From Pseudomonadota bacterium (GTDB lineage Bacteria; Pseudomonadota; Gammaproteobacteria; Eutrophobiales; Eutrophobiaceae): 64,000 bases of DNA. The stretch covers positions 18,895 to 82,894 of the forward strand of contig JABFGI010000003.1 in NCBI GenBank assembly GCA_013112535.1, written 5' to 3'. This document shows positions 5,253 to 41,022 of the stretch, piece by piece. The notes beneath the pieces were generated by a model. That model was given only the letters and a program-made list of their open reading frames with translations. It had not been told where the DNA came from and searched no databases. Position numbers and translations under genes: made by a program. Positions within the stretch are counted from its first letter, which is position 1. Every line of letters begins with the position of its first letter.

Positions 5253-6182
5253 ATGCAATTATTTTTAATATCAAAATTTAGGAAAAAAAGTCAAACTTTG
5301 ACTTTAGGTCCTGTGGCTATATGCGTTTGTTTAATGCTGGGTATTATCGCAGGTTTATTGACCTTTCATGCAGGCAGTCTGCATGCGTTAAACTTGACAC
5401 GTGGTTCCTTTAAAGATTTATACAGTCAAACTGCACCTCTGTGGAGCCAGGAGATTGATCATCAGCAATTAATGCTTGATCAGGCTCAAGAAAATGCTAA
5501 AAAAAATCTTGATGCATTAGCTGCAAGATTAAGCAAGTTACAATCTCATGTTATGCGTCTAGATGCACTTGGTGCGCGCCTGGCTGATATGGCGGAACTT
5601 AATGAAATAGAATTTGATATTAATTCAGCTCCGGGTTTAGGTGGACCAGAACCCGTTAATAACGGGACGATGGAAGTTAGCGACTTTATTGTTGAACTTG
5701 AAAAGTTAAATTCCAAAATAAAGGATCGTTCAGAAAAATTGACTGCAATGGAATCAATGTTGATAGACAGAACATTGCAAAAGCAGACTCTTCCTACTGG
5801 CAGCCCTACAACAGATGGTTGGGTGTCTTCGTTATTTGGTATGCGCGCTGATCCCATAACAGGAAAAATGGTTTTTCACGATGGTATTGATTATGCCGGT
5901 AAATCAGGCTCTCCTATACTTACAGTTGCATCAGGTATCGTTACCTGGTCTGGTGTCCGCTATGGCTATGGTAATATGGTCGAGATAAATCATGGTAATG
6001 GTTACCAGACACGTTATGCACACAATAAGAAAAATCTTGTTGTTGTCGGACAAAAAGTAGATCAAGGACAAATAATAGCTTTAATGGGATCGTCAGGAAG
6101 GTCAACTGGACCTCATGTTCATTTTGAAGTTGTTCAAAATGGAAAAACGGTTAATCCAAAAAAATATATTTCTCTGAAATAA
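5253..6182 (+). CDS. M23-family murein endopeptidase (coiled-coil N-terminal domain, EnvC/NlpD-like)
   Basis: C-terminal HxxxD...GxxV.H.GIDYAG...GYGNMVEINHGNGYQTRYAH...GPHVHFEV matches the LytM/M23 catalytic motifs. Start trimmed to the first ATG that does not overlap the divergent dciA; start is uncertain. Confidence 0.7.
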   Translation: MQLFLISKFRKKSQTLTLGPVAICVCLMLGIIAGLLTFHAGSLHALNLTRGSFKDLYSQTAPLWSQEIDHQQLMLDQAQENAKKNLDALAARLSKLQSHVMRLDALGARLADMAELNEIEFDINSAPGLGGPEPVNNGTMEVSDFIVELEKLNSKIKDRSEKLTAMESMLIDRTLQKQTLPTGSPTTDGWVSSLFGMRADPITGKMVFHDGIDYAGKSGSPILTVASGIVTWSGVRYGYGNMVEINHGNGYQTRYAHNKKNLVVVGQKVDQGQIIALMGSSGRSTGPHVHFEVVQNGKTVNPKKYISLK

Positions 6183-6220
6183 CGACCCCAACTATATTGC
6201 TTCGCCTCTCTGGAACTCAT

Positions 6221-6253
6221 TTTACGTAACGTACGTAACATAATTTACGTAAT
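6221..6253. promoter_or_regulatory. three copies of the 8-bp palindrome TTACGTAA/TACGTAAC, 25-55 bp upstream of the secA start
   Basis: tTTTACGTAAcgTACGTAACataaTTTACGTAAtaa read directly in the sequence. Candidate operator or structured leader. Confidence 0.3.
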
Positions 6254-6277
6254 AATTTTAATTTAAAGATATAAAGT

Positions 6278-8980
6278 ATGATTACAGGATTAGTAAAAAA
6301 AATATTTGGTTCTCGAAATGATCGAGTTATCAAAAAATTAAACAAGACAGTAGCGCAAGTTAACTCCGTTGAAGAAGAGTTTAAGTCTTTAAATGACAGC
6401 GACTTTCCAGAAAAAACAAAACAGTTTAAAGAAAGAATTCAACAAGGAGAAAGTCTGGATAATATTTTGCCTGAGGCTTTTGCATTAGTAAGAGAAGCAG
6501 GCCTGCGAGTATTAAACATGCGCCACTTTGATGTGCAGTTAATCGGCGCAATGGTATTACATAATGGCAATATTGCTGAAATGCGGACAGGTGAGGGTAA
6601 AACACTGGTCGCTACATTAGCAGCATATTTGAATGCCCTGTCAGGTTCTGGTGTTCATGTCATTACAGTTAATGATTATCTGGCGAAACGTGATTCAGAA
6701 TGGATGGGACAGATATATAATTTTCTTGGTTTAACGACAGGAGTAATTGTTAGTGGTCTATCTATAGAAGAAAGAAAAGCTGCTTATCAGTGCGATATTA
6801 CTTATGGTACAAACAATGAATTTGGTTTTGATTATTTGCGTGACAACATGGCGTTCAGTAATGAAGGTCGCGTACAAAGAGGTTTAAACTTTGCCATAGT
6901 TGATGAAGTCGATTCGATTCTTATTGATGAAGCAAGAACGCCATTAGTTATTTCAGGGATGGTCGATGACAAGTCAGATTTATACATAACTATTAATGCA
7001 TTAATTCCGAAGTTAGTTGTGCAAAAAATTGAAGATGGACCGGGTGATTTCACACTGGATGAAAAATCGAAGCAAGCATATTTTACCGAGGACGGCCATG
7101 ATCACATTGAACAACTATTAAGAGAACAAAATGTTCTTAAAGAAGATCAGGCATTATATGATCCGGTTAATATCAGTATTCTTCATCATTTGAATGCCGC
7201 ATTAAGAGCACATCACTTATTTAACAAAGACGTTGATTATATTGTTAAAGATGATGAAATTGTTATTGTTGATGAATTTACAGGTCGTACCATGCAAGGG
7301 CGCCGTTGGTCAGAAGGATTACACCAGGCAATTGAAGCGAAAGAAGGTGTAACGATACAAAATGAAAATCAGACTCTGGCATCAATAACGTATCAAAATT
7401 ATTTTCGCCTGTATTCCAAACTATCAGGTATGACTGGTACTGCAGATACGGAAGCATTTGAGTTTCAATCAATATATGGCCTGGAAGTAGTTATAATCCC
7501 GACTAATATGTCGATGATTCGTGATGATCAAAGCGATATTATCTTTTTAACTGCGAAAGAAAAATACGCAGCTATGATAGAAGATATAAAAGACTGCCAG
7601 TCAAAAGGACAACCCGTATTAGTAGGTACCGCTTCTATCGAAGTGTCAGAGTATTTATCAAATTTACTTAATAAAGAAAATATAAAACATCAGGTATTGA
7701 ATGCCAAATTTCATGAAAGAGAAGCAGAAATTATTGCACAGGCAGGCCAGACAGGTGCAATCACGATTGCAACTAATATGGCAGGCCGCGGTACTGATAT
7801 TGTTTTAGGTGGTAATTATGAATCAGAAATTAAATCATTAAATGAACCTGATCAGAAACAAGTTGATAAAATTAATGAAGAATGGAAACAACGCCATCAA
7901 CAAGTACTTGATAGCGGTGGTCTACACATTATTGGAACTGAACGTCATGAATCGCGCCGCATAGATAATCAACTTCGTGGCCGATCTGGTCGACAGGGCG
8001 ATCCAGGTTCCAGTCGTTTCTATCTATCATTAGAAGATAATTTAATGCGTATTTTTGCGTCTGATCGTATATCTTCAATTATGCAGAAGCTTGGTATGGA
8101 TGAAGGAGAAGCGATTGAATCTAAATTAGTGACCCGTGCAATTGAAAATGCGCAACGAAAAGTTGAAGCACATAATTTCGATATTCGTAAACATCTACTT
8201 GAATATGATGATGTTGCCAATGATCAGCGGAAAGTAATTTATGAACAAAGAAATGAGTTACTTGATGAGGAAGATGTTTCCGAACAAGTCAATGATATAC
8301 GTTCTGAAGTTATTGAAGGGGTGATTGATAATTATATTCCCCGCGGCAGTATGGAAGAAATGTGGGATATCAGTGGTTTAACAGATGCATTTCAACATGA
8401 ATTTGATTTGGTTGTTGATATTGATTCATGGCTTAAGCAGGATAAATCTCTACATGAAGAAGCACTTCGTGAAAAAATTCATGCAGCCATGGAAAAAGTT
8501 GTTAAAGATAAAGAAGAAATGATTACTTCTGAATTGATGCGACGTGTAGAAAAGCAAATTATGCTCGATGTGTTAGACAGGCATTGGAAAGAGCATCTTG
8601 TTAATATGGATCATCTGAGACAAGGTATACAGTTAAGAAGCTTTGCAGGTAAAAACCCAAAACAGGAATATAAGCGTGAAGCTTTTGAATTGTTTGTGCA
8701 AATGCTCGAAGCTATGAAACACGATGTTGTTGTTTTTCTATCAAGAGTTAATATCAGAACTGAACAAGACGTAGAATTGGCTGAAAACCAGGAACATGAA
8801 CAAAACATGAACTTTAATCATGCTTCTGCGCCCAGTAGTCTGAACCCGGGTGTTCCGGAGCAAGCATCGCCGCCTGCGGAAAAACCTTATACACGTAGTA
8901 AACCAAAAGTTGGACGTAATGAACCATGCCCGTGTGGTTCAGGCAAAAAATTTAAGCAATGTCATGGAAGATTAAGTTAA
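6278..8980 (+). CDS. secA: preprotein translocase ATPase SecA
   Basis: 900 aa. N-terminus [25 protein letters not shown]-like motor domains and a C-terminal zinc-binding [14 protein letters not shown] motif. Confidence 0.97.
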
Positions 8981-30595: not shown

Positions 30596-30997
30596 TTACA
30601 AACCTGCACCAGCTTGACACTGAGCAGCAGTTGCACCGCCAGCAGTTCCAGACGTTGCAGTATATGTTACAGTTGCGGAAGTGACTGTAGCGACAACAGT
30701 ACAAGATCCTTCAGCATAGGTTACGGTTGCCGCCGCCGCGCTTTCAGAAACACTGGCTAAAGTGAGAGCGGCATCAGTAACAGCATTTAATTCCGTACAG
30801 CCTACACCGGTATCTACACAGACTTGAGATTGCGATACATAAGGGTTAATCCCTTTCATTGCTGCGCCACCGTGTGATTCAGCGACATATGCACGATATG
30901 ATGGAATCGCCACTGCAGCAAGAATACCGATAATTGCAACAACGATCATAAGTTCGATCAAGGTAAAACCTTGTTGATATGTGTTTTTATACTTCAT
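30596..30997 (-). CDS. pilA: type IVa major pilin paralog 1 (PilA-like)
   Basis: Start set at [10 protein letters not shown]|[22 protein letters not shown], preceded by an AAGGAG SD 7 nt upstream. Class III signal (G|F, E+5). C-terminal Cys pair forming a disulfide loop. The ORF-track N-terminal extension was rejected. Confidence 0.85.
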
Positions 30998-31200
30998 TGA
31001 TCCGCTCCTTCTACTCTTCACAACTGTTTTTTTATTGTTCAGTGTAAACAGATTCAACGCTGTTGGTATTTCTAGCGTTTAACCCCCTATGGTTGTGAGT
31101 AGATGAGTATTTGATGTCCCTTTGTCAAAGCAAACGTCCTGATGTAATTGGCATTTAAAACATCTAAACACATACTTAATAATAATTTTTATTCTTATTT

Positions 31201-31231
31201 AAAAAGACCCGCATTTGCGGGTCTTTTTAGT
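31201..31231 (-). terminator. rho-independent terminator between the two pilin genes
   Basis: AAAAAGACCCGCAAATGCGGGTCTTTTT is a perfect GC-rich stem flanked by A/T runs. It lies just downstream of pilin paralog 2 on the minus strand. Confidence 0.75.
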
Positions 31232-31251
31232 AACACTTTTCTAAAGTCTAA

Positions 31252-31665
31252 TTATAGACCTGCGCCAGCCTGACACTGAGCAGCGGTCGCACCACCACCA
31301 CCACCGGTGGTTGCAGTAAAGGTTACAGCTGCTGCAGTAACTGTTGCGACAACCTGACAAGAACCTTCGTTATAGGTTACGGTTGCAGCAGCAGCGTTTT
31401 CAGAAACGCTAGCTAGGGTAACGTTAGCATCAGTGGTCGCATTTAATTCAGTACAACCAACACCGGTTTCTACACAAACTTGAGCTTGAGATACGAAAGG
31501 TCCAGCACCTTTCATTGCAGCACCACCATGTGATTCAGCAACATAGGCACGGTATGATGGAATTGCGACTGCCGCAAGAATACCGATAATCGCAACAACG
31601 ATCATTAATTCGATCAGGGTAAAACCCTGTTCGCTTTTGCTATTCATTTTTTTCATTTGTTTCAT
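31252..31665 (-). CDS. pilA: type IVa major pilin paralog 2 (PilA-like)
   Basis: MKQMKKMNSKSEQG|[34 protein letters not shown] 7 nt before the first ATG; an internal ATG start is also possible. About 85% identical to paralog 1 over the mature protein. Confidence 0.85.
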   Translation of the reverse strand: MKQMKKMNSKSEQGFTLIELMIVVAIIGILAAVAIPSYRAYVAESHGGAAMKGAGPFVSQAQVCVETGVGCTELNATTDANVTLASVSENAAAATVTYNEGSCQVVATVTAAAVTFTATTGGGGGATAAQCQAGAGL

Positions 31666-31736
31666 TATTAGTTCTCCGTTATTTAAACTGATTACAAAAA
31701 CTATAGTTTTTACCCCAGTTTGAGGTGATTACTGTT

Positions 31737-31754
31737 AAGCAGGCCTCATGCCAG
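31737..31754 (-). promoter_or_regulatory. sigma-54 (RpoN) -24/-12 promoter for pilin paralog 2
   Basis: Minus strand reads cTGGCATgaggccTGCTT, i.e. GG-N10-GC with spacing and flanks close to TGGCAC-N5-TTGCW. About 70-85 bp upstream of the pilin ATG. pilS-pilR are adjacent. Confidence 0.55.
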
Positions 31755-31857: not shown

Positions 31858-31893
31858 CTGTTGTCAAAAAATGACAACTTTGTCATTTTTTTA
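31858..31893. promoter_or_regulatory. three alternating TTGTCA/TGACAA (TGTC-core) half-sites, a candidate PilR upstream activating sequence
   Basis: ctgTTGTCAaaaaaTGACAActtTGTCAttttttt lies about 110-140 bp upstream of the sigma-54 -24 element. Published PilR sites are TGTC-containing repeats. Confidence 0.35.
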
Positions 31894-32079: not shown

Positions 32080-32787
32080 ATGCAATCAAAACGACACGAA
32101 TTAAAGTTCTATCTGAATGAGATTCAATCTGAAAGATCAATACATCAATTAAACTCGTTGATGGATGTCGATGCATACTGCAAAAATCAACAAAGTTATC
32201 GTGTTCGTAGTCTTTATTTTGATTCGTATGATGATGAGTGCCTGTACGAAAAACAGTCAGGAAACTTATTAAGAAAAAAAATTAGATTACGTACCTACGA
32301 TGGTGGTGGTAATGAACCTGTGAAATTTGAAATAAAACGAAAACAGGGGCAAATTGTAAAAAAAGACGTCGCTATAATTACCAAAGAAGAAGCTGAACAG
32401 GTATGTCTAGGTAATTTTTCAGTATTATTGAATAAAAATAATGCTGTCTTGAATGAAATTTACACTACTTTTGTTACTAAACTCTATAAACCTAAAGTGA
32501 TCGTTGAATATAATCGGACTGCTTTTGTATTACCTGTCTCGAATATAAGAGTGACGTTAGATCAGGATCTAAGTTCGAATATTAATCACCTTGATCTGTT
32601 TTCACCTGTAAATAGTATGATGCCGGTGATTCTTGAAGGTAAACAAATACTGGAAATAAAGTACGATGATTTTTTTCCCGGCTATTTAAAGAAAGTATTA
32701 TCATCACTTAGTTCGGAAAGAATGGCCATCAGCAAATACACGTTAGCCAGACGATTCCATAAAGTCCATAAATGGGAGGACAATTAA
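32080..32787 (+). CDS. VTC-domain protein (CYTH-like / polyphosphate-polymerase-domain family)
   Basis: 235 aa. HELKFYL...RVRSLYFDS...KKIRLRTY...KFEIKRK alternating basic/acidic beta-strand motifs are typical of the triphosphate-tunnel VTC/CYTH fold. Overlaps the next ORF by 16 nt. Confidence 0.7.
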   Translation: MQSKRHELKFYLNEIQSERSIHQLNSLMDVDAYCKNQQSYRVRSLYFDSYDDECLYEKQSGNLLRKKIRLRTYDGGGNEPVKFEIKRKQGQIVKKDVAIITKEEAEQVCLGNFSVLLNKNNAVLNEIYTTFVTKLYKPKVIVEYNRTAFVLPVSNIRVTLDQDLSSNINHLDLFSPVNSMMPVILEGKQILEIKYDDFFPGYLKKVLSSLSSERMAISKYTLARRFHKVHKWEDN

Positions 32788-33488
32788 TCATGGATCAAGT
32801 TACCTTTGCAGATGTACTGCAAAAAAGTTTCATTGCAATGTCAATGGGTAGTACAGACAGGATCACTACGTTAAATATTTTATTGAATATATCAATGTCG
32901 TTTTTGATTGGTATGTTTATATTTTATATTTATAAAAAAACCTATCAGGGTGTTTTATATCAACGCAGTTTTAATATTTCACTGGTCCTGGCAAGTACGG
33001 TGACATCCATGATTATTATGACTATCAGTGGCAACTTGATTCTTTCCCTGGGAATGGTTGGCGCATTGTCAATTGTTCGTTTCAGAACGCCCGTCAAGGA
33101 TAGCATGGATTTAATCTTCTTATTTTGGGCAATAAGTGTTGGTATAGCTAATGGCGTCGGCTATTTTAATATCTCTATTGTAGGTTCGATCATGATCGCA
33201 ATATTTATGTTGCTGTTGACTCGTTCCGGTAAAGGTGTAGCTGATACGTTTTTGTTGGTGCTTCAATTGTCTGATACATCAAAGGAAGAAAACATTCTTG
33301 GTGAAATTCAGAAACAAACCGACTTGTGTTCAATAAAATCAAAAACAGTTTCAGATACAGGGACAGAGATTACTTTAGAAGTAAAAGTAAAGCAGGGGCA
33401 AACTGAGTTCATGAACAGCCTGCAAGCAGATGCAGGTGTTGTTCGTGCTACTCTTGTTTCTTATGATCAGGATTTATCTTCAGTATAG
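32772..33488 (+). CDS. DUF4956-like polytopic membrane protein (VTC-associated)
   Basis: 238 aa with about four TM helices and an SIVRFRTPVKD motif. Transcriptionally coupled to the VTC gene. Confidence 0.55.
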   Translation: MGGQLIMDQVTFADVLQKSFIAMSMGSTDRITTLNILLNISMSFLIGMFIFYIYKKTYQGVLYQRSFNISLVLASTVTSMIIMTISGNLILSLGMVGALSIVRFRTPVKDSMDLIFLFWAISVGIANGVGYFNISIVGSIMIAIFMLLLTRSGKGVADTFLLVLQLSDTSKEENILGEIQKQTDLCSIKSKTVSDTGTEITLEVKVKQGQTEFMNSLQADAGVVRATLVSYDQDLSSV

Positions 33489-34488
33489 AAGTCTAATCTT
33501 GTTTTCTATAGTAAAGAAACTGTGCTTCTCTAGCGTCTTTATAACGACGAGCACAGTTGCTGTCGCCGTAACAAATGGTACGGGTACAGATTATTGTATA
33601 AATCAGGGCTTCAAAAATACATACTATTTACTGGATTATAAAGATATCACTGCAGCCTCTGTTTTTTTTCAAGAAATCTCCTTGAAAAATACAAGCATGG
33701 AATCACGACTAGTGATTAAAAAAGGAACAAGAGCTAGAGGTATTACATATTTCGACGATAATAATCTGACATTACTAACAGCAAAAAAAGAGTTAATTCA
33801 TGTAATAGATAATAATCTACCGGAATTTAGAGAGGATAAAGAACAAATCATTTTTTATGATCGAACCTTGCTAAATGAGAGTTCAAAAAGTTTTGTAGTA
33901 AAAAATTATAACAGGAAACTTACGCCTTTCGATAAACACCCTTTGTTTGGTCGAATAAAACGAAAAGAAAGGCCCGTGCTTATGGAATTGCTTTCAGGTA
34001 TAGGTATAAGCAAATTACAGTCGATTTCAGGAGTTATAAATATTAACTCCGATGAAGAGGTTAAATTAATTACGCATTTTGCAATACCGTATGGTGCTTT
34101 CACGTTTAGTATATTCAATCTGGATGATTTTGGAGTGCCGAATACTTCTTTTTTATTAAAGTTTGAAATGTTTTCTAACGAGGACAACTCTCTTACAGTG
34201 TTCGAAAAAGAAAGTCTTAACAAGCTTTTTTGTCAGGTTAATAAGCAGTTTCAAATTTCTTTCCCACATGCCGAATCATCTCCATGGTTTGGCTATGCTG
34301 AATATCATAAATTAGCATCAGAGATTTTACCAAGTCGTACATTATTCCGAAAATACCCATTGCTTTTTTCTGTTGGGCAGATTGTTTGTCTGAGCTTTAT
34401 CGGTTTTCTTTTTATTTATATTGTTTTAGGAAGATACTCAAGGCGAGACAATTTTCGTAAAGTTTCAAAATCTAAAGTTTATTTATGA
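33430..34488 (+). CDS. hypothetical protein with C-terminal TM anchor (start uncertain; alternative ATG near 33697)
   Basis: Long ORF with no recognisable domain. C-terminal hydrophobic helix (IVCLSFIGFLFIYIVLG). Its stop overlaps the CotH start (ATGA). Confidence 0.45.
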   Translation: MQVLFVLLLFLMIRIYLQYRSLILFSIVKKLCFSSVFITTSTVAVAVTNGTGTDYCINQGFKNTYYLLDYKDITAASVFFQEISLKNTSMESRLVIKKGTRARGITYFDDNNLTLLTAKKELIHVIDNNLPEFREDKEQIIFYDRTLLNESSKSFVVKNYNRKLTPFDKHPLFGRIKRKERPVLMELLSGIGISKLQSISGVININSDEEVKLITHFAIPYGAFTFSIFNLDDFGVPNTSFLLKFEMFSNEDNSLTVFEKESLNKLFCQVNKQFQISFPHAESSPWFGYAEYHKLASEILPSRTLFRKYPLLFSVGQIVCLSFIGFLFIYIVLGRYSRRDNFRKVSKSKVYL

Positions 34489-37196
34489 GAGTTTATCGTC
34501 CCCGTCATTGTCCCTTCTGGCCTGTGTTTTTAGCATTATTATTACTGGCTGCTTTAAGTAGTTTTATTTTTGGCGGCGTTACCGAAATGATGAAGTATGA
34601 AAAGGCAACGACAACAGCGATCAGGTTTAACTATACGCTTGATAGTTTCCATCATTTTATTAATGAATATATAACACGACAATATCAAAAACTTACAGTA
34701 AAACCCTTACCCGAACAGACCAACTTACCTTCATTTTATTTATATACAGATGAGCGAGATTTAGAGTCATTAGAATCAAACTTACCTGCAAGTGGTAAAG
34801 TCGAATTTAAAAAAAGTCACATAAGAATAGATAAACCAAGTTTTTCAAGTGAAGCGGAATTTCGCTTTCGAGGAGGAATGGATTTACATTGGTTATATGA
34901 AAAAAAATCATTAAGAATAAAGTTGCCACAATTTAGTACCTATTTGAATGAGCGCCAGTTTAATTTGGTCAACCCATCAACAATTCATACAGTTACTGAT
35001 TGGGTAACTTATGATATGTCGCGTTCGATAGGGCTATTGACGCCAGACTATTTTCCGGCACGTTTATTCATTAATAATGAAACAAACGGACTACACTTTT
35101 TTTTAAGTAAAGTAGATGAATCATTTTTGCGTAAGAACAATAGAATGCCTGGAAGTATTTATTCCGGAGATACTATCTATACGCCAAATCCTTTTGGTTT
35201 GGATGAGGGGATAGGTGAGAAAGTTTTTGCCCATAATGGGAGGCCCTCTTTATGGTTTGACGATAGATTATGGAAGAAAGATGCTTCAAGAAATATGGAA
35301 TCAACTGAAAGTCGTGAAGATATAAAGTTATTCATTAAGTCTGTAAACGAACCAGATCCATTGGTTTTTATGGAAAAATTTGATACTTACTTTGATAAAA
35401 AACAATTCTATCGCTTTTGGGCATTAGATAAATTAGTTGGTAGTAACCATCATGATTTGTTTCATAATCACCGTATTTATTTTGACCCTTATTTAGGTAA
35501 ATTTGAACCGATTGAGTGGGATGTTCGATTCTGGACAATTGCTAAATCACTTTCAGTCACTCCTTTTTTTAAACAAATTCTGTTAAACCCTGTATTGAGA
35601 TATGAGCATGATCTTGTACTTTATGATCTTTGGAGAAAATTTAATGTCGATAATGTTAATGACATGATTGATGGGGCAGATAATAGTATAAAAAATGAAT
35701 TAGCGGCGGATCCTTATCGACAACAGCCTGACGAATACCTTAAATTTGGTGGGTTTGGTAAAGCTTTGCCTTTTACTATGGATGAATATACGAATGCTAT
35801 TAAATCGTTGAAAAAAATTTATAGCTTTAGATATGGACTTATCGAGCAAAGGTTAAATTTTAATACTTCCTATTTTCAAATTGAAAAAATAACTGAGAAA
35901 GAGAGCAGGGTTTCTATTGCATTGTCCGGAAATAGCCCCATTGAATTTAATCCATGGACGATTATTCCAAAGCCTATCCATAAAGATGTTAAGTTATTTC
36001 GTGTCTATAATAATAAGTTGTATCCTGTATTAGATAAAGAGCAATCGGATCGATTGTATCCGGGAATATCAATAATGGAAGGTTATAGATCTTCTAATGT
36101 ATCAAATGGTATGGAAACAAGAGTAATGGAGTCATACAGACAATCGCCATTACATTATCAATATTTAATAAAAGGAGTAAACAGCTCCGACTTAATTGAA
36201 ACTAAAAAACTGACGGGGACAAATTCAATTACTTCAAATGTAGTCGCAATCGAAAATGTAGAACAATTACCTGATGATGTAAGTACAGTCTCTTTACATC
36301 CCTGGGAATTATTAACACAGGAAGAGATTTCAACGAGAGAGATCGTGTTGTCGGGCGAAATAGAAGTTAATCAGGATCGCTCTTTCACAAAAGAACAAAC
36401 AGTGAAGATATTACCCGGGACCGTGTTTAAACTGGCAAGAGCCAGTTCATTGTATTTTTATGGGAAAGTGATAGGAAAAGGAACAGAAACTTTACCGATT
36501 AAATTTGAACAAAAAGAACCAGGTCAGGCCTGGGGCAGTATCGTTATTCAGGGTAAAGAAGCTTCCGGTAGTATTTTGAGCTATATCAGCGTTAGTGGTG
36601 GATCTACAGCAAAACGTAACCTGATTGCCTATCCAGGCCAGTTGAATATTCACGATGTAAATTCTTTTCAACTAGATCATTGTTTTATTAGTAATAATTC
36701 TGTGGGCGATGATGCTTTGCATGTCGCCTACAGTAATGGCTCTATTGATTATTGTGAGTTCAATAATACAGCTTTTGATGCATTGGATATGGATATTGTT
36801 GATGTTTCAGTAACAAATTCTCATTTTTCAAATATTGGCAATGATGCAATTGATTTGATGAATTCAAAAGCAAATATTAGTTATGTTGATATTAATGGGA
36901 CGGGTGATAAATGTATTTCAGTGGGCGAGGCAAGTGAAGTAAACGTTGAACATAGTCAACTTAAAGCATGTTCGATTGGAATAGCAGTTAAAGATCAATC
37001 AAAATTACACGTTGATGATATTGTATTTTCAGTTGAACAAGGAAACGCTATAGCACTTTATCGTAAGAACTCACGTTACAGTAATGGAGGTGAAGTATAC
37101 GGAGAAAGGCTTTATGGAATTAATGAGCAGGATATAAACGTCGGTGATTATTCCGTAAATAATATTAAACAAAGTGCATATCACTCTTTTAAATAA
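34485..37196 (+). CDS. CotH-family atypical protein kinase with N-terminal signal anchor and C-terminal right-handed parallel beta-helix (PbH1) repeats
   Basis: 903 aa. CotH-like stretch (LRIKLPQ, NERQFNLVNP, HNHRIYFDPYLGKFEPIEWDVRFW). The C-terminus has 22-aa periodic repeats: NNSVGDDALHVAYSNGSI / NNTAFDALDMDIVDVSV / SNIGNDAIDLMNSKANI / NGTGDKCISVGEASEVNV. Confidence 0.75.
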   Translation: MRVYRPRHCPFWPVFLALLLLAALSSFIFGGVTEMMKYEKATTTAIRFNYTLDSFHHFINEYITRQYQKLTVKPLPEQTNLPSFYLYTDERDLESLESNLPASGKVEFKKSHIRIDKPSFSSEAEFRFRGGMDLHWLYEKKSLRIKLPQFSTYLNERQFNLVNPSTIHTVTDWVTYDMSRSIGLLTPDYFPARLFINNETNGLHFFLSKVDESFLRKNNRMPGSIYSGDTIYTPNPFGLDEGIGEKVFAHNGRPSLWFDDRLWKKDASRNMESTESREDIKLFIKSVNEPDPLVFMEKFDTYFDKKQFYRFWALDKLVGSNHHDLFHNHRIYFDPYLGKFEPIEWDVRFWTIAKSLSVTPFFKQILLNPVLRYEHDLVLYDLWRKFNVDNVNDMIDGADNSIKNELAADPYRQQPDEYLKFGGFGKALPFTMDEYTNAIKSLKKIYSFRYGLIEQRLNFNTSYFQIEKITEKESRVSIALSGNSPIEFNPWTIIPKPIHKDVKLFRVYNNKLYPVLDKEQSDRLYPGISIMEGYRSSNVSNGMETRVMESYRQSPLHYQYLIKGVNSSDLIETKKLTGTNSITSNVVAIENVEQLPDDVSTVSLHPWELLTQEEISTREIVLSGEIEVNQDRSFTKEQTVKILPGTVFKLARASSLYFYGKVIGKGTETLPIKFEQKEPGQAWGSIVIQGKEASGSILSYISVSGGSTAKRNLIAYPGQLNIHDVNSFQLDHCFISNNSVGDDALHVAYSNGSIDYCEFNNTAFDALDMDIVDVSVTNSHFSNIGNDAIDLMNSKANISYVDINGTGDKCISVGEASEVNVEHSQLKACSIGIAVKDQSKLHVDDIVFSVEQGNAIALYRKNSRYSNGGEVYGERLYGINEQDINVGDYSVNNIKQSAYHSFK

Positions 37197-37226: not shown

Positions 37227-37691
37227 ATGTATAATTTCAAAGGTCTATGTATAAGTCATCTGGTATTAGCTTGTTCGGTAGCTATTTGTGCTGTGTTTGC
37301 AATATGGTTGAATTCGGATACAGAGGTCGAAGAGTATCGTGCTTTTATGCTTGTGTATGATAACTTTTTTTTTACAAATGAAAAAGAAGAAGCAAAAAAA
37401 TTTCGTCATAAAAAATTAGCAGAATTAAAAGGCAATAAAATTGACAATATGTGGTTGCCTATTGTCGAAGTAGAAGAAGATGGTCCATACAAGATTCAAT
37501 TATATATACGCATTTTGGCGGGTGACCCAGAAAAAGAGTTTACATATATACAATTAGCAGCCCTTATATATATAGTCTTTCCTGAAGAGTCTCAACGTCA
37601 GCAGAGAAATAAATTTTTTAAAGAAATACAGGAAATTGAAGGTATTCATTATCATTTATTAGAAAAATATAATTTGCTTGTAAGTCAATAA
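37227..37691 (+). CDS. hypothetical small protein with N-terminal signal/TM segment
   Basis: 154-aa ORF with no recognisable domains. Lies at the edge of the VTC/CotH block. Confidence 0.4.
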   Translation: MYNFKGLCISHLVLACSVAICAVFAIWLNSDTEVEEYRAFMLVYDNFFFTNEKEEAKKFRHKKLAELKGNKIDNMWLPIVEVEEDGPYKIQLYIRILAGDPEKEFTYIQLAALIYIVFPEESQRQQRNKFFKEIQEIEGIHYHLLEKYNLLVSQ

Positions 37692-39314: not shown

Positions 39315-40046
39315 ATGGAAAATGAATTATTTGACGAGATGTATAAAGTCGAATCTCGGCACTGGTGGTTTGTTGCAAGACGAAAAATTATTGGAAATGT
39401 AATAGAACAATTAAGACTTGAAAAGAATTCGTCTATTCTCGATGCAGGTTGTGGTAACGGTGATAATCTTGAAATGTTATCTAGATACGGTGACGTGATG
39501 GCTATGGAAAGAGAGGAAAATGCTTTGCAGAAAGCGCAGGCAAGGAATATTGGTAACGTATTTAAAGGAGAACTGCCAAGTCATATTCACGCAGATATTC
39601 AGAAAGATAAAGACTTAATAGTCTTACTGGACGTTTTAGAGCACATTGATGATGATGCCGGTAGTTTGGAAGCACTAGGGAATTATATGAACGATAACGG
39701 TAGTCTTGTTCTTACTGTGCCGGCATATCAGTTTTTATGGACTAGCCATGATGAACAGCATCATCATAAAAGAAGATATACGGTGACTCAGTTAAAAACA
39801 CTCATTGAAAATAATGGCTGGAATGTTAGTTATATTTCGTATTTTAATACCTTATTGTTTCCATTAGCACTAATAGACAGAATAAAACAAAAGTGGTTTT
39901 CGTCAGGTGAAAATGAGGGATTAAAAATGCCTTCCACATGTATAAATGCTATTTTTGAAAAAATATTCAGTTTTGAATCAAGGTTTATTGGTAAAATTGC
40001 ATTTCCTTTTGGTCTTTCAATAATTGCCGTTGCAAAGAAAACATAA
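39315..40046 (+). CDS. class I SAM-dependent methyltransferase
   Basis: Motif I ILDAGCGNGDN and motif post-I VLLDVLEHIDDD. 243 aa. Confidence 0.75.
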   Translation: MENELFDEMYKVESRHWWFVARRKIIGNVIEQLRLEKNSSILDAGCGNGDNLEMLSRYGDVMAMEREENALQKAQARNIGNVFKGELPSHIHADIQKDKDLIVLLDVLEHIDDDAGSLEALGNYMNDNGSLVLTVPAYQFLWTSHDEQHHHKRRYTVTQLKTLIENNGWNVSYISYFNTLLFPLALIDRIKQKWFSSGENEGLKMPSTCINAIFEKIFSFESRFIGKIAFPFGLSIIAVAKKT

Positions 40047-40047
40047 C

Positions 40048-41022
40048 ATGGAAAGAAAAAAAACAAATAGCGAAAAAATATTGTCGGTAGTTGCGCCTGC
40101 TTATAATGAAGTGGATGGATTGGATGAGTTTTATTCCAGGCTGGTTGAGGCAGTAAAAGATCTGGAGCTTCAGCTGGAAATCATTTATGTCAATGATGGC
40201 AGCAAAGATGGCACGCTCGAAGTAATGAGTAAGCAACACAATAGCGATTCACGAATCACAATTATTGACTTAAGTAGAAACTTTGGCAAAGAGGTAGCGC
40301 TGACCGCAGGACTGGATCATGCAACAGGTGATGCTATTGTTGTAATAGATACCGATCTCCAGGATCCGCCTGAGTTGATTCCGGAATTAGTCAGAAAATG
40401 GACTGAAGGTTTTGATGTTGTTAATGCAAAAAGAATAAAACGTAAGGGTGAAACCGCATTTAAAAAAATCACTTCATTTGTGTACTATCGTTTTTTATAT
40501 CAACTTAGTGATATAAAAATTCCAAAAGATACAGGTGATTTTCGTTTATTGAGTCGTAAAGCATTAAATGCATTACTGACATTACGCGAGAAACACCGAT
40601 ATATGAAAGGTTTGTTTGCCTGGGTAGGATATTCGCAAGCTGAAATTACATATGAGCGCGATGAACGTTATGCCGGCGAAACAAAATGGAATTTTTTAGG
40701 TTTACTGGATTTAGCGTTTGAGGGTCTTACTTCGTTCTCAGTGTTACCATTAAGACTTGCGTCATTACTGGGTTTCTTATCTGCATTCGCAGGTCTATTT
40801 TTTGCCATAATTATTATTTTAAAGAAAATAATGTTTGGAGATCCGGTAGCAGGTTATCCCTCGTTAGTGGTCTTGATAACATTTATAGGCGGAGTTCAAT
40901 TATTGGCTTTGGGAATAATTGGTGAATATCTCGGTCGAGTATTCAATGAAACAAAGAACAGACCTCTTTATTTTGTAAAAGACATAAAACCTTCCGATTA
41001 TTTAGCAGATAATAAAGATTAA
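40048..41022 (+). CDS. GT2-family polyprenyl-phosphate glycosyltransferase (ArnC/GtrB/DPM1-like) with two C-terminal TM helices
   Basis: SVVAPAYNE...VNDGSKDGT...DTDLQDPPE (DXD)...RLLSR motifs. Start at the ATG 1 nt after the methyltransferase stop. Confidence 0.8.
   Translation: MERKKTNSEKILSVVAPAYNEVDGLDEFYSRLVEAVKDLELQLEIIYVNDGSKDGTLEVMSKQHNSDSRITIIDLSRNFGKEVALTAGLDHATGDAIVVIDTDLQDPPELIPELVRKWTEGFDVVNAKRIKRKGETAFKKITSFVYYRFLYQLSDIKIPKDTGDFRLLSRKALNALLTLREKHRYMKGLFAWVGYSQAEITYERDERYAGETKWNFLGLLDLAFEGLTSFSVLPLRLASLLGFLSAFAGLFFAIIIILKKIMFGDPVAGYPSLVVLITFIGGVQLLALGIIGEYLGRVFNETKNRPLYFVKDIKPSDYLADNKD

Follow-up and report, generated by a model that had tools for sequence, protein, structure and literature searches.

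Among the closest described counterparts of the gene block analysed here is an accessory set found beside Gram-positive pel operons, which joins cotH, a polyphosphate polymerase gene and a DUF4956 gene and also includes DUF4832 or DGC-PDE (Whitfield et al. 2020, PMC7112168). In these sets the three families are likewise contiguous and linked to a surface polymer, and secretion is predicted for the CotH protein; the DUF4956 protein has been described as an MgtC-like protein with four transmembrane segments and a C-terminal ACT-like domain. In Streptococcus intermedius (SIR_1594-1592), Pel levels and aggregation were altered when the CotH and DUF4956 genes were deleted, but not on deletion of the VTC gene (PMC12345266). 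The phenotypes were modest and, since only the CotH and DUF4956 deletions had one, CotH function is not obviously VTC-dependent in the aggregation assay. The first-pass annotation of our locus had held that no function was established experimentally for such a neighbourhood in any bacterium. This stands for biochemical function, but the triad had already been described and deletion phenotypes are known (PMC7112168, PMC12345266). A further point of reference is the yeast VTC complex, made up of Vtc4 and Vtc1/2/3 (PDB 3G3Q, 7YTJ, 8I6V), with which the first gene product of the block shares the Pfam VTC family.

The window, that is, the whole stretch of 64,000 nucleotides that was analysed, carries the block on its plus strand. 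It begins with g1 (32080..32787), for a cytoplasmic VTC-domain protein of 235 residues, and g2 (32772..33488), for an integral DUF4956 membrane protein of 238 residues that is distantly MgtC/SapB-like. These are followed by g3 (33430..34488), whose 352-residue product would be exported and C-terminally anchored in the membrane, and g4 (34485..37196), for an N-terminally anchored protein of 903 residues in which a CotH kinase domain is joined to beta-sandwich domains and a beta-helix. The overlaps are 16 nt between g1 and g2 and 4 nt (ATGA) between g3 and g4; that between g2 and g3 is 59 nt if g3 starts at its first ATG (33430) and 26 nt if it starts at the NCBI-called Met at 33463, and which of these is the true start is uncertain. 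The four overlapping same-strand genes of the first-pass annotation, with overlaps given as 16 nt, about 58 nt and ATGA, were thus recovered exactly where it had placed them, as were their flanks, with pilS, pilR and two pilin genes upstream and suhB and trmJ downstream. Its VTC, DUF4956 and CotH calls all reappeared in a Pfam search, in which g3 gave no match. The block of four genes is real but incomplete, since a fifth conserved gene, g5 (37227..37691, plus strand), also belongs to it. This gene encodes a small protein with one N-terminal transmembrane segment and a helical domain, and follows the CotH gene in 17 gammaproteobacterial loci. Neither Pfam nor PDB gave a match for its product; 2 of the 12 members matched TPR_14 weakly. 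In other clades this position is taken by small single-TM ORFs, with g5-HMM matches of 17-18 bits in three of them.

The g1 product matches the VTC family (PF09359) at E 1.4e-37, and a profile of 29 homologues retrieves the Vtc4 structure 3g3q at E 2.4e-13. Invariant residues are K9, R69, R71, K86, Y144, R146, E192, S218 and K219, which align to Vtc4 K200, R264, R266, K281, Y359, R361, E426, S457 and K458. All nine triphosphate- and Mn-binding residues of Vtc4 are thereby kept, the catalytic Lys included; in Vtc4 they are needed for polyP synthesis and their mutation lowers polyP. The last of them, K219, corresponds to the Lys by which active Vtc4 differs from the inactive Vtc2 and Vtc3, where it is replaced. 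Hydropathy analysis detected no transmembrane or other hydrophobic segment in g1. On the basis of these residues, g1 can be considered a candidate Vtc4-type polyphosphate polymerase. To our knowledge, an activity has yet to be measured for a VTC-domain or DUF4956 protein of bacterial origin.

The remaining proteins all appear to be tied to the membrane, with topologies derived from simple hydropathy and positive-inside analysis rather than from a dedicated predictor. The g2 product belongs to DUF4956 (PF16316, E 2.5e-11, 44 bits against a cut-off of 30.6) and weakly matches MgtC/SapB in NCBIfam (E 0.0013). About five hydrophobic segments with K/R-rich loops precede a C-terminal soluble domain of about 85 residues, and the invariant R103-F104-R105, K109 and D113 lie in a predicted cytoplasmic loop. 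Any export role for g2 would be a pure analogy with the yeast VTC complex, since DUF4956 shares no homology with the Vtc1-type (DUF202) channel. The g3 product begins with a signal-like stretch, contains two invariant Cys and carries a C-terminal transmembrane segment followed by a K/R tail; it is predicted to be exported and to adopt a TTM/CYTH fold, a fold that binds tri- and polyphosphates, with no sequence-level match to any TTM. In contrast to CYTH/TTM enzymes such as the inorganic triphosphatase YgiF of E. coli (PDB 5A61), to which it has no detectable sequence similarity, it would be exported and membrane-anchored, and its first strand carries N52-x-Y54-x-L56 in place of the ExExK motif. 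It may be only a scaffold.

The g4 product is a CotH protein (PF08757, E 1.2e-22, residues 127-449), with a kinase domain at residues ~83-458 (34731..35858, plus strand) that was aligned to 5jd9, and a right-handed parallel beta-helix at residues ~619-890 (36339..37154, plus strand). Its D324, N328 and W345-D346 align to D223, N228 and W245-D246 of Bacillus cereus, residues whose roles are given in PMC12189002, and are invariant or at least 90% conserved among 13 homologues. The catalytic Asp and Asn, the metal-binding Asp and the adenine-stacking Trp are therefore conserved, and the Tyr is probably kept likewise, which suggests that this CotH still binds nucleotide rather than polyP. Such a reading leaves the problem of a periplasmic donor standing. 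A single N-terminal transmembrane segment preceded by K/R predicts a periplasmic location behind this anchor. The beta-helix is similar to those of alginate epimerases, lyases and tailspikes, which argues for a glycan over a protein substrate. The Bacillus spore-coat protein kinase CotH (PDB 5JD9/5JDA), a Fam20C-like atypical kinase, shares 18% identity with g4; it is located in the mother-cell cytoplasm, whereas g4 is membrane-anchored and predicted periplasmic, has ~450 additional residues and has no spore context.

The co-occurrence of the three families, left by the first-pass annotation as a point to be checked, is clear. CotH, VTC and DUF4956 genes adjoin one another in 65 of 78 non-redundant loci. 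Of the remaining 13, a contig end truncates 11 and two have no partners despite ample flanks, so that adjacency holds in 97% of the informative loci (65/67), in two different gene orders. In as many g2 adjoins g1, and g3 follows g2 in both orders. This arrangement is far beyond chance. The module is found in Gammaproteobacteria, Campylobacterota, Desulfobacterota, Myxococcota, Planctomycetota, Bacteroidales, Cyanobacteria and others. A published claim that the triad is restricted to Pel loci is contradicted by these loci. In modules of the Myxococcota type, a Porin_O_P gene (OprO/OprP family) lies directly upstream of the CotH gene (14 of 18 members, best E 3.9e-9), and in Campylobacterota the modules lie among GT1, GDP-mannose 4,6-dehydratase and epimerase genes.

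The first-pass annotation had treated the pilin genes as mere neighbours, yet no other feature of the gamma clade is as conserved or as informative as their adjacency: in 21 of its 22 informative loci the module adjoins a pilin gene. In the window pilA, for the major type IVa pilin (31252..31665, minus strand; Pfam N_methyl), is divergent from g1, and a second, paralogous pilin gene (30596..31057, minus strand) was assigned from Pfam N_methyl and sequence. At least five arrangements of pilA and block exist: divergent, co-directional, convergent, between pilA and pilB, and beside suhB. A sigma-54-type promoter-like site, TGGCATGAGGCCTGC (31739..31753, minus strand), lies 74 nt upstream of pilA and is conserved in loci L005 and L006; it has 2 mismatches, and the count of such sites (59 matches against 49.8 expected) is not significant on its own. 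The gene for a sigma-54 activator is pilR. Furthermore, the pilA-g1 intergenic region contains a palindrome, GTTGTCA-N5-TGACAAC (31860..31878), a possible operator kept only in the window, L005 and L006. Locus L015, of the same clade, has GGDEF and HD-GYP neighbours and no adjoining pilin gene, and no pilin gene adjoins the module in the loci surveyed outside the gamma clade. The pilA product is a candidate partner or substrate of the block; the adjacency could also stem from shared ancestry with local inversions or from the known plasticity of the pilA locus.

On these grounds it is tentatively proposed, with rather less than even confidence, that the five proteins form a trans-envelope polyphosphate or phosphotransfer machine acting to modify a surface polymer, in this case probably the pilus. 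The data show gene content, conservation down to the catalytic residues, predicted folds and the pilin adjacency; topology, polyP synthesis, export, donor and substrate are inferred. That g1 and g2 are conserved to the same degree as sucC and suhB points to selection on the module. Soluble g1 would make polyphosphate from NTP at the cytoplasmic face, and g2 would dock g1 and pass the growing chain or phosphoryl groups across the inner membrane, by analogy with yeast VTC. In the periplasm the chain would be received by three membrane-anchored proteins: g3, as a second and probably non-catalytic tunnel-fold domain, the small partner protein g5, and g4, in which a catalytically intact CotH kinase is joined to a polysaccharide-enzyme-like beta-helix. 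The kinase may phosphorylate, or polyphosphorylate, pili or another surface polymer. In the gamma clade its most likely target would be the type IV pilus, through the adjoining major pilin or a glycan on it, which would make the block an accessory or modification cassette for the pilin. The membrane-associated device feeding an extracytoplasmic kinase that the first-pass annotation had suggested is thus supported in part, by the retained Vtc4 residues, the predicted periplasmic CotH, the predicted exported TTM protein and the OprO/P porin of Myxococcota.

Alternatively, the substrate of the same machine may be a glycan such as a secreted polysaccharide, on which CotH and the beta-helix would act as kinase or modifier, the position beside pilA reflecting co-regulated surface behaviour or locus history rather than modification of the pilin. 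This is only slightly less likely. The Gram-positive triads sit in pel operons and affect Pel levels, the Campylobacterota modules lie among sugar genes, L015 is flanked by c-di-GMP enzymes and the pilin adjacency is confined to the gamma clade. However, the block is not flanked by genes for polysaccharide synthesis, either in the window or in most gamma loci; the closest, a GT2 and a methyltransferase gene, lie past suhB and trmJ. Moreover, in 21 of the 22 informative loci pilA abuts the block whatever stands on the other side, several blocks even lying between pilA and pilB. A looser coupling of two functions seems unlikely. The VTC/DUF4956/g3 part would then serve phosphate, polyP or Mg2+ homeostasis or signalling, either as cytoplasmic polyP with an MgtC-like regulator or in the uptake and breakdown of external polyP, and the CotH-beta-helix protein would be a polyP-independent surface enzyme or adhesin. 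The weak MgtC/SapB similarity fits this. So does the published view of the streptococcal homologue, for which MgtC-type functions in phosphate metabolism were put forward by authors who suggested that polyP may remain in the cytoplasm. The S. intermedius phenotypes, confined to CotH and DUF4956, and the retained nucleotide pocket of CotH point the same way, and the OprO/P porin and periplasmic TTM fold would also suit polyP import and hydrolysis. Against it, a periplasmic kinase without donor supply is hard to explain and the polymerase-specific Lys is present in g1. Moreover, the near-universal linkage across many phyla in two gene orders and the translational overlaps in the window argue for one machine.

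Finally, the first-pass annotation had found the AT-richness of the block and its break in synteny consistent with horizontal acquisition. In this view the block would be a recent AT-rich island functionally unrelated to its neighbours. The lower GC is seen in total composition (five genes, 0.335 against 0.399 +/- 0.032, ~2 SD below the window mean; Mann-Whitney p 1e-4) but not at third positions (GC3 0.282 against 0.308 +/- 0.038, p 0.21), so the gap arises at the first two codon positions and thus reflects amino-acid composition. In Microbulbifer, IS200/IS605 transposases and toxin-antitoxin genes precede the block, whereas in the window no tRNA or mobile-element genes lie near it. The order pilSR-pilA-block-suhB-trmJ is identical in relatives with core proteins 64-87% identical, and in identity g1 and g2 keep pace with or surpass sucC, suhB and pilR. 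Recent transfer is therefore unsupported, and such an island is very improbable.

As in yeast VTC, the gene for g1 comes together with that of an obligate multi-pass membrane partner, and the second tunnel-fold protein g3 loosely recalls the inactive tunnel domains of Vtc2 and Vtc3. Unlike in yeast, an SPX domain is absent, g1 forms a soluble polypeptide of its own, its membrane partner is DUF4956/MgtC-like instead of a Vtc1-type three-helix DUF202 subunit, and g3, devoid of canonical motifs, is predicted on the opposite, periplasmic side. In comparison to the pel sets, the block has two genes beyond the triad, g3 and g5, and g4 ends in beta-sandwich and beta-helix domains where the pel-set CotH ends in FN3; the host is Gram-negative, and the block adjoins pilA, with no pel genes among its annotated neighbours. 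The pilin accessory cassettes of Pseudomonas aeruginosa (tfpO, tfpW, tfpX/Y/Z; PMC11841053) likewise lie immediately beside the major pilin gene. They share with the co-directional module loci, where a hairpin and T-run lie between pilA and g1, a hairpin terminator between pilA and the accessory genes (PMC11841053), and rapidly diverging pilins within one cassette are common to both systems. The module has no homology to TfpO, TfpW or TfpX-Z and comprises five genes against one, and its chemistry, if any, would be phosphate-based, whereas that of the P. aeruginosa cassettes is glycosylation or chaperoning.

ORF calling recovers the four forward-strand genes of the first-pass annotation at the positions it gave: g1, a VTC-domain gene (32080-32787, 235 aa); g2, a DUF4956 gene (32772-33488, 238 aa); g3, encoding a protein predicted to be exported (33430-34488, 352 aa); and g4, a CotH gene (34485-37196, 903 aa). 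The overlaps of 16 nt and ATGA stand, while that of about 58 nt becomes 59 nt, or 26 nt from the NCBI-called Met at 33463. Pfam searches assign the first gene to VTC (E 1.4e-37), the second to DUF4956 (E 2.5e-11) and the fourth to CotH (E 1.2e-22), and return zero matches for the third, which had rightly been called unannotatable. The block, though, consists of five genes instead of four: the 154-aa ORF at 37227-37691 (+; g5) also belongs to it, because contigs of Microbulbifer rhizosphaerae and Ca. Thiodiazotropha keep the same order of VTC, DUF4956, an unknown of ~325 aa, CotH/Beta_helix and an unknown of ~160 aa. An antisense TTG-initiated ORF of 105 aa inside g3 (33906-34223, -) is probably spurious. 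The flanks are as described earlier, with pilS, pilR and two opposite-strand pilin genes upstream, and suhB and trmJ downstream; methyltransferase, GT2 and purM genes complete the neighbourhood.

Loci were collected in a CotH-alignment-seeded scan with one genome per species, which gave 76 loci; their ORFs were called and searched with HMMs made from the proteins of the window. The co-occurrence that had been proposed for checking is found in 65 of the 78 non-redundant loci, where VTC and DUF4956 genes adjoin CotH. Another 11 loci are truncated on the relevant side by the end of their contig and were left out of the informative set, and only two (L035 and L066) are without these partners despite ample flanks. 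Polymerase, membrane protein and kinase are therefore encoded together in 97% of informative loci, in Gammaproteobacteria, Campylobacterota, Desulfobacterota, Myxococcota, Planctomycetota, Bacteroidales, Cyanobacteria, Elusimicrobia and Aminicenantes. The gammaproteobacterial, pilin-linked modules (the gamma clade) have the order g1-g2-g3-g4-g5, and modules elsewhere have g4, a small TM protein, g1, g2 and sometimes g3. In both orders the g3 family lies 3' of g2, and CotH is followed by a small ORF whose product has one N-terminal TM segment. Two loci carry tandem CotH/beta-helix paralogues (L019, 3236-7718; L038, 4920-10382). An anti-phage defence system was rejected, as PADLOC-DB models gave zero matches for g1-g5 at E <= 0.01.

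The g1 product matches Pfam PF09359 with 129.9 bits (cut-off 23) over model positions 1-230 of 235, and a profile of 29 homologues finds the crystal structure of Vtc4, the catalytic subunit of the yeast polyphosphate polymerase, with E 2.4e-13. Nine residues invariant among these homologues (K9, R69, R71, K86, Y144, R146, E192, S218 and K219) align, in order, to Vtc4 K200, R264, R266, K281, Y359, R361, E426, S457 and K458. According to cryo-EM work the nine Vtc4 residues bind triphosphate and Mn2+ and are needed for cellular polyP, and among them only K458 is replaced in Vtc2 and Vtc3, which are inactive (10.1101/2023.01.27.525886). Judged by this full conservation of the active site, g1 is a candidate Vtc4-type polyphosphate polymerase.

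The g2 product matches PF16316 with 44 bits (cut-off 30.6) and has, besides four to five hydrophobic segments, a C-terminal soluble domain and K/R-rich loops at 55-66 and 100-111, the second of which holds an invariant cluster R103-F104-R105...K109...D113. Its likeness to MgtC/SapB is distant and faint: the curated MgtC model NF007431 of NCBIfam, whose cut-off is 214 bits, scored 18.4 bits (E 0.0013). The same likeness has been described for a streptococcal DUF4956 homologue (PMC12345266). A PDB sequence search with g2 gave zero matches.

For g3, structure prediction yields an eight-stranded tunnel, as in the triphosphate-tunnel (TTM/CYTH) superfamily. In fold comparison the highest scores are those of E. 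coli YgiF (14.2), BH2851 (13.6), PH1819 (12.2), Vtc2 (11.5) and Vtc4 (10.8), closely followed by thiamine triphosphatase and class IV adenylyl cyclase. This kinship is invisible to sequence methods, with no match in Pfam or in a PDB sequence search, and hhalign of g3 against the g1 family gave a probability of 0.2%. The ExExK motif of TTM/CYTH strand 1 is absent, this strand reading N52-T-Y54-Y-L56, so that catalysis is doubtful. Homologues of g3 have typical signal peptides, two invariant cysteines and a C-terminal TM helix followed by a K/R-rich tail; from the signal peptides and the helix with its tail, the tunnel domain is predicted to be periplasmic. The family is small, with 127 representatives among 1.84 billion proteins.

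The g4 product is 100% identical to HND53_06455 of an uncultured "Proteobacteria bacterium" MAG. Its predicted structure (pLDDT 85, pTM 0.84) has four parts, including an N-terminal anchor helix and beta-sandwich domains, and the region matched by PF08757 (residues 127-449) has the CotH fold. D324, N328, D346 and W345 are conserved in the family and align to B. cereus D223, N228, D246 and W245, of which D223 and N228 are catalytic, D246 binds metal and W245 stacks on adenine. Equivalents of PKA D166, N171 and D184 are thus present, as is the adenine sandwich (B. cereus Tyr142 and Trp245); the invariant Y226 aligns to within one residue of Tyr142, its position being approximate. In appearance the CotH domain remains a nucleotide-binding kinase. 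In the beta-helix, Asp, Asn, His or Lys is invariant at more than 15 positions, a pattern that implies a conserved binding or catalytic groove. The g5 product combines a single TM segment with a helical domain; its family has no match in Pfam or PDB beyond a weak TPR_14 in two of 12 members, and a word-indexed protein search returned only g5 itself. Outside the gamma clade its HMM weakly matches three small post-CotH ORFs. The idea that g5 is specific to pilin-linked modules was dropped, since small single-TM ORFs directly follow CotH in other clades as well.

As a raw locus count that ignores kinship, pilA adjoins the block in 21 of 22 informative gamma-clade loci, including six informative contigs from a g3-seeded metagenome scan, all with pilA adjacent. 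The gene concerned encodes the major type IVa pilin, and gene maps show at least five arrangements (arrowheads giving direction): pilSR, pilA<, pilA<, g1>...g5>, suhB< in the window, L005 and L006; pilSR, pilA>, g1>... in L008, L009, L010, L046 and L048; pilC<, pilB<, g1>...g5>, pilA<, pilR<, pilS< in L003, L011 and L016, and without pilRS in L013; g1>...g5>, pilA<, pilB> in Microbulbifer; and pilA<, pilA<, g1>...g5>, pilB> in L017. The sole gamma-clade locus without an adjacent pilin gene, in a Methylococcaceae MAG (L015), is also without g5. Its block is flanked by genes for a GGDEF diguanylate cyclase (GGEEF) and an HD-GYP-type protein (HHE...GYP), at 1277-2320 and 7561-8721, as read from translations.

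In the window, two tandem, closely related major-pilin genes lie within 30596-31753 (-), with a hairpin and T-run terminator at ~31195-31230, 3' of the first (31252-31665). A sigma-54-type site TGGCATGAGGCCTGC (31739-31753) lies 74 nt upstream of pilA 31252-31665 and is kept in L005 and L006. No sigma-54 promoter for g1 was found on the + strand, the only well-placed site serving pilA; matches to the pattern are not significantly more frequent in the window than by chance. Within the block, the sigma-70 promoters and terminators found in scans did not exceed the numbers expected from shuffling. A palindrome in the pilA-g1 intergenic region, GTTGTCA-N5-TGACAAC (31860-31878), kept in the closest relatives L005 and L006 and not beyond, may be an operator for divergent promoters. 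Where pilA and g1 are co-directional, the alignment shows a GC hairpin with a T-run between them; a simple terminator scan overlooked these long-loop hairpins.

The block had been described as AT-richer than its flanks and as consistent with horizontal acquisition. Total GC of the five genes is indeed low; GC3 is not. As a recent event, horizontal transfer is rejected, because GC3 is normal, gene maps show the flanks kept in relatives and module identity tracks core identity. Across loci, module and core proteins fall along the same gradient of identity to the window: 88% for g1, 87% for g2, 87% for sucC and 86% for suhB in L005, and 75%, 84%, 71% and 69%, respectively, in L008. Faster divergence than the core is seen for g3, g5 and above all pilA, which falls to 76%, then to 55% identity, and then becomes unalignable, much faster than its neighbours. 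No mobile-element genes were found near the block in the window. A tRNA-linked island was also rejected, as the window and 16 related loci contain no tRNA gene. The block is an old, vertically inherited and strongly constrained component of the lineage. Two IS200/IS605 Y1 transposase genes, together with ParDE and HepT/MNT toxin-antitoxin pairs, precede it in Microbulbifer rhizosphaerae (L001, 1-5277), where it borders a mobile, variable region.

Just past trmJ in the window, at 39315-41022, a SAM-methyltransferase gene overlaps a gene for a GT2 polyprenyl-phosphate glycosyltransferase, which is PgfS/ArnC-like (E 1.9e-86), has the same position in L005 and L006 and is near the block in L007. 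In this last locus the gene after g5 (5990-7867) encodes a multi-pass membrane protein of 625 aa that has a TPR-like C-terminus and no Pfam match; we take its N-terminal 'FVFDDYHNI' loop to resemble GT-C glycosyltransferases. In other clades the surroundings differ. Myxococcota-type modules carry, directly 5' of CotH and co-directional with it, a gene of the Porin_O_P (OprO/OprP) family, which PF07396 detects in 14 of 18 members with a best E of 3.9e-9; it lies ~1.1-1.7 kb before the start of CotH (L052, L053, L055, L057, L062, L065, L067, L068, L074, L076, L077 and others). OprP and OprO are Pseudomonas outer-membrane channels selective for phosphate and for pyro- and polyphosphate. Some of these modules also have a Lamin-Tail-Domain protein after DUF4956 (eight loci) or a PPDK_N-domain protein upstream (five loci). 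Campylobacterota-type modules and their relatives are embedded in glycan-synthesis clusters (L020, 3611-9930; L030, 4266-9959; L034, 5432-8779 and 14621-16532; L039, 6558-8463), which contain several GT1 genes, GDP-mannose 4,6-dehydratase, NAD-dependent epimerase and methyltransferase with DUF4214.

It had been stated that this neighbourhood has no established function. No paper was found that assigns an activity to a VTC-domain or DUF4956 protein of bacteria, or that ties CotH to pili; the gene set itself, however, had already been noticed, and deletion phenotypes exist. Whitfield et al. described cotH, polyphosphate polymerase, DUF4956 and DUF4832 genes as a pel-contiguous accessory set in streptococci, clostridia and bifidobacteria (PMC7112168), and a VTC / membrane-protein / CotH run is tabulated for NELoc-2 of Clostridium perfringens. 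In S. intermedius, deletion of the CotH and DUF4956 genes altered Pel levels and lessened aggregation, whereas deletion of the VTC gene had no such effect (PMC12345266). The statement of these authors that the triad could not be found outside Pel loci (PMC12345266) is contradicted by the 65 loci in Gram-negative bacteria and other phyla. What is new here is a Gram-negative, pilin-linked five-gene variant of a previously noticed gene set.

The proposal of a polyphosphate or phosphotransfer device is partly supported. The most economical reading, which we put forward tentatively, is a single trans-envelope machine of three layers that acts on a surface polymer, here the pilus. In such a machine g1 would be the cytoplasmic polymerase, g2 the membrane partner, and the periplasmic layer would comprise the tunnel fold of g3, the kinase and beta-helix of g4 and the small partner g5. 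It would deliver phosphate chemistry to a polymer that may not be the same in every lineage; Pel would fill this role in Gram-positives, the type IV pilus in the gamma clade and glycans in Campylobacterota. Export via DUF4956 might be imagined, by analogy only. This combined model has real weak points, namely the nucleotide-binding look of CotH, the silent streptococcal VTC deletion, the beta-helix and a pilin adjacency uncorrected for kinship.

The beta-helix suggests a glycan substrate, and the same machine with a glycan as its target is a variant that we regard as only slightly less probable. With much lower probability, the block would be a bacterial VTC counterpart, in which a PPK-independent polymerase and a new kind of conduit, DUF4956, would pass polyP into the periplasm and onto a tunnel-fold receiver, where it would energise the CotH kinase, with pili becoming (poly)phosphorylated. 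If true, this would represent a new class of pilin modification and would explain how extracytoplasmic kinases can act in the absence of ATP.

Synthesis of polyP in bacteria is attributed to PPK1 and PPK2. Judged by sequence, bacterial proteins whose VTC domain retains the whole Vtc4 active site are obvious candidates for a PPK-independent route in their carriers. That non-PPK synthesis in bacteria is an open question is shown by a 2026 preprint in which B. cereus, said to be without a VTC4 homologue, is reported to make extracellular polyP independently of PPK, with no enzyme known (PMC13484657). The module is present in the cultured strain Microbulbifer rhizosphaerae CECT 8799 (JACHWZ010000001, about 280-298 kb), and the predictions are therefore open to genetics and mass spectrometry. 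To our knowledge, no phosphoryl donor is evident for CotH/Fam20-like kinases that are secreted or periplasmic; a co-encoded polymerase, membrane protein and periplasmic tunnel domain are proposed as a concrete answer to this problem. Furthermore, pilin accessory cassettes influence phage susceptibility and immune recognition of pili, and a phosphate-based pilin cassette would be new chemistry.

In comparison with the eukaryotic VTC complex, g1 is a tunnel domain only, of 235 aa, without SPX domain or TM segment, and its membrane neighbour is DUF4956 instead of Vtc1-type DUF202 helices. Unlike spore-coat CotH, g4 has no spore-coat context, its neighbours being pil genes. With the Gram-positive pel-associated set the block has contiguous CotH, VTC-type polymerase and DUF4956 genes in common, but it is not contiguous with pelDEADAFG or a DUF4832 hydrolase, and pel and DUF4832 had no match among the window proteins scanned. 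Compared with known pilin accessory proteins, g1-g5 have no O-antigen-ligase, GT-C or TfpY-like Pfam match. As with the TfpO, TfpW and TfpX-Z cassettes, however, the block lies immediately beside the major pilin gene (21/22), and the pilA-g1 hairpin of co-directional loci recalls the terminator present in the pilA-accessory cassettes of P. aeruginosa.
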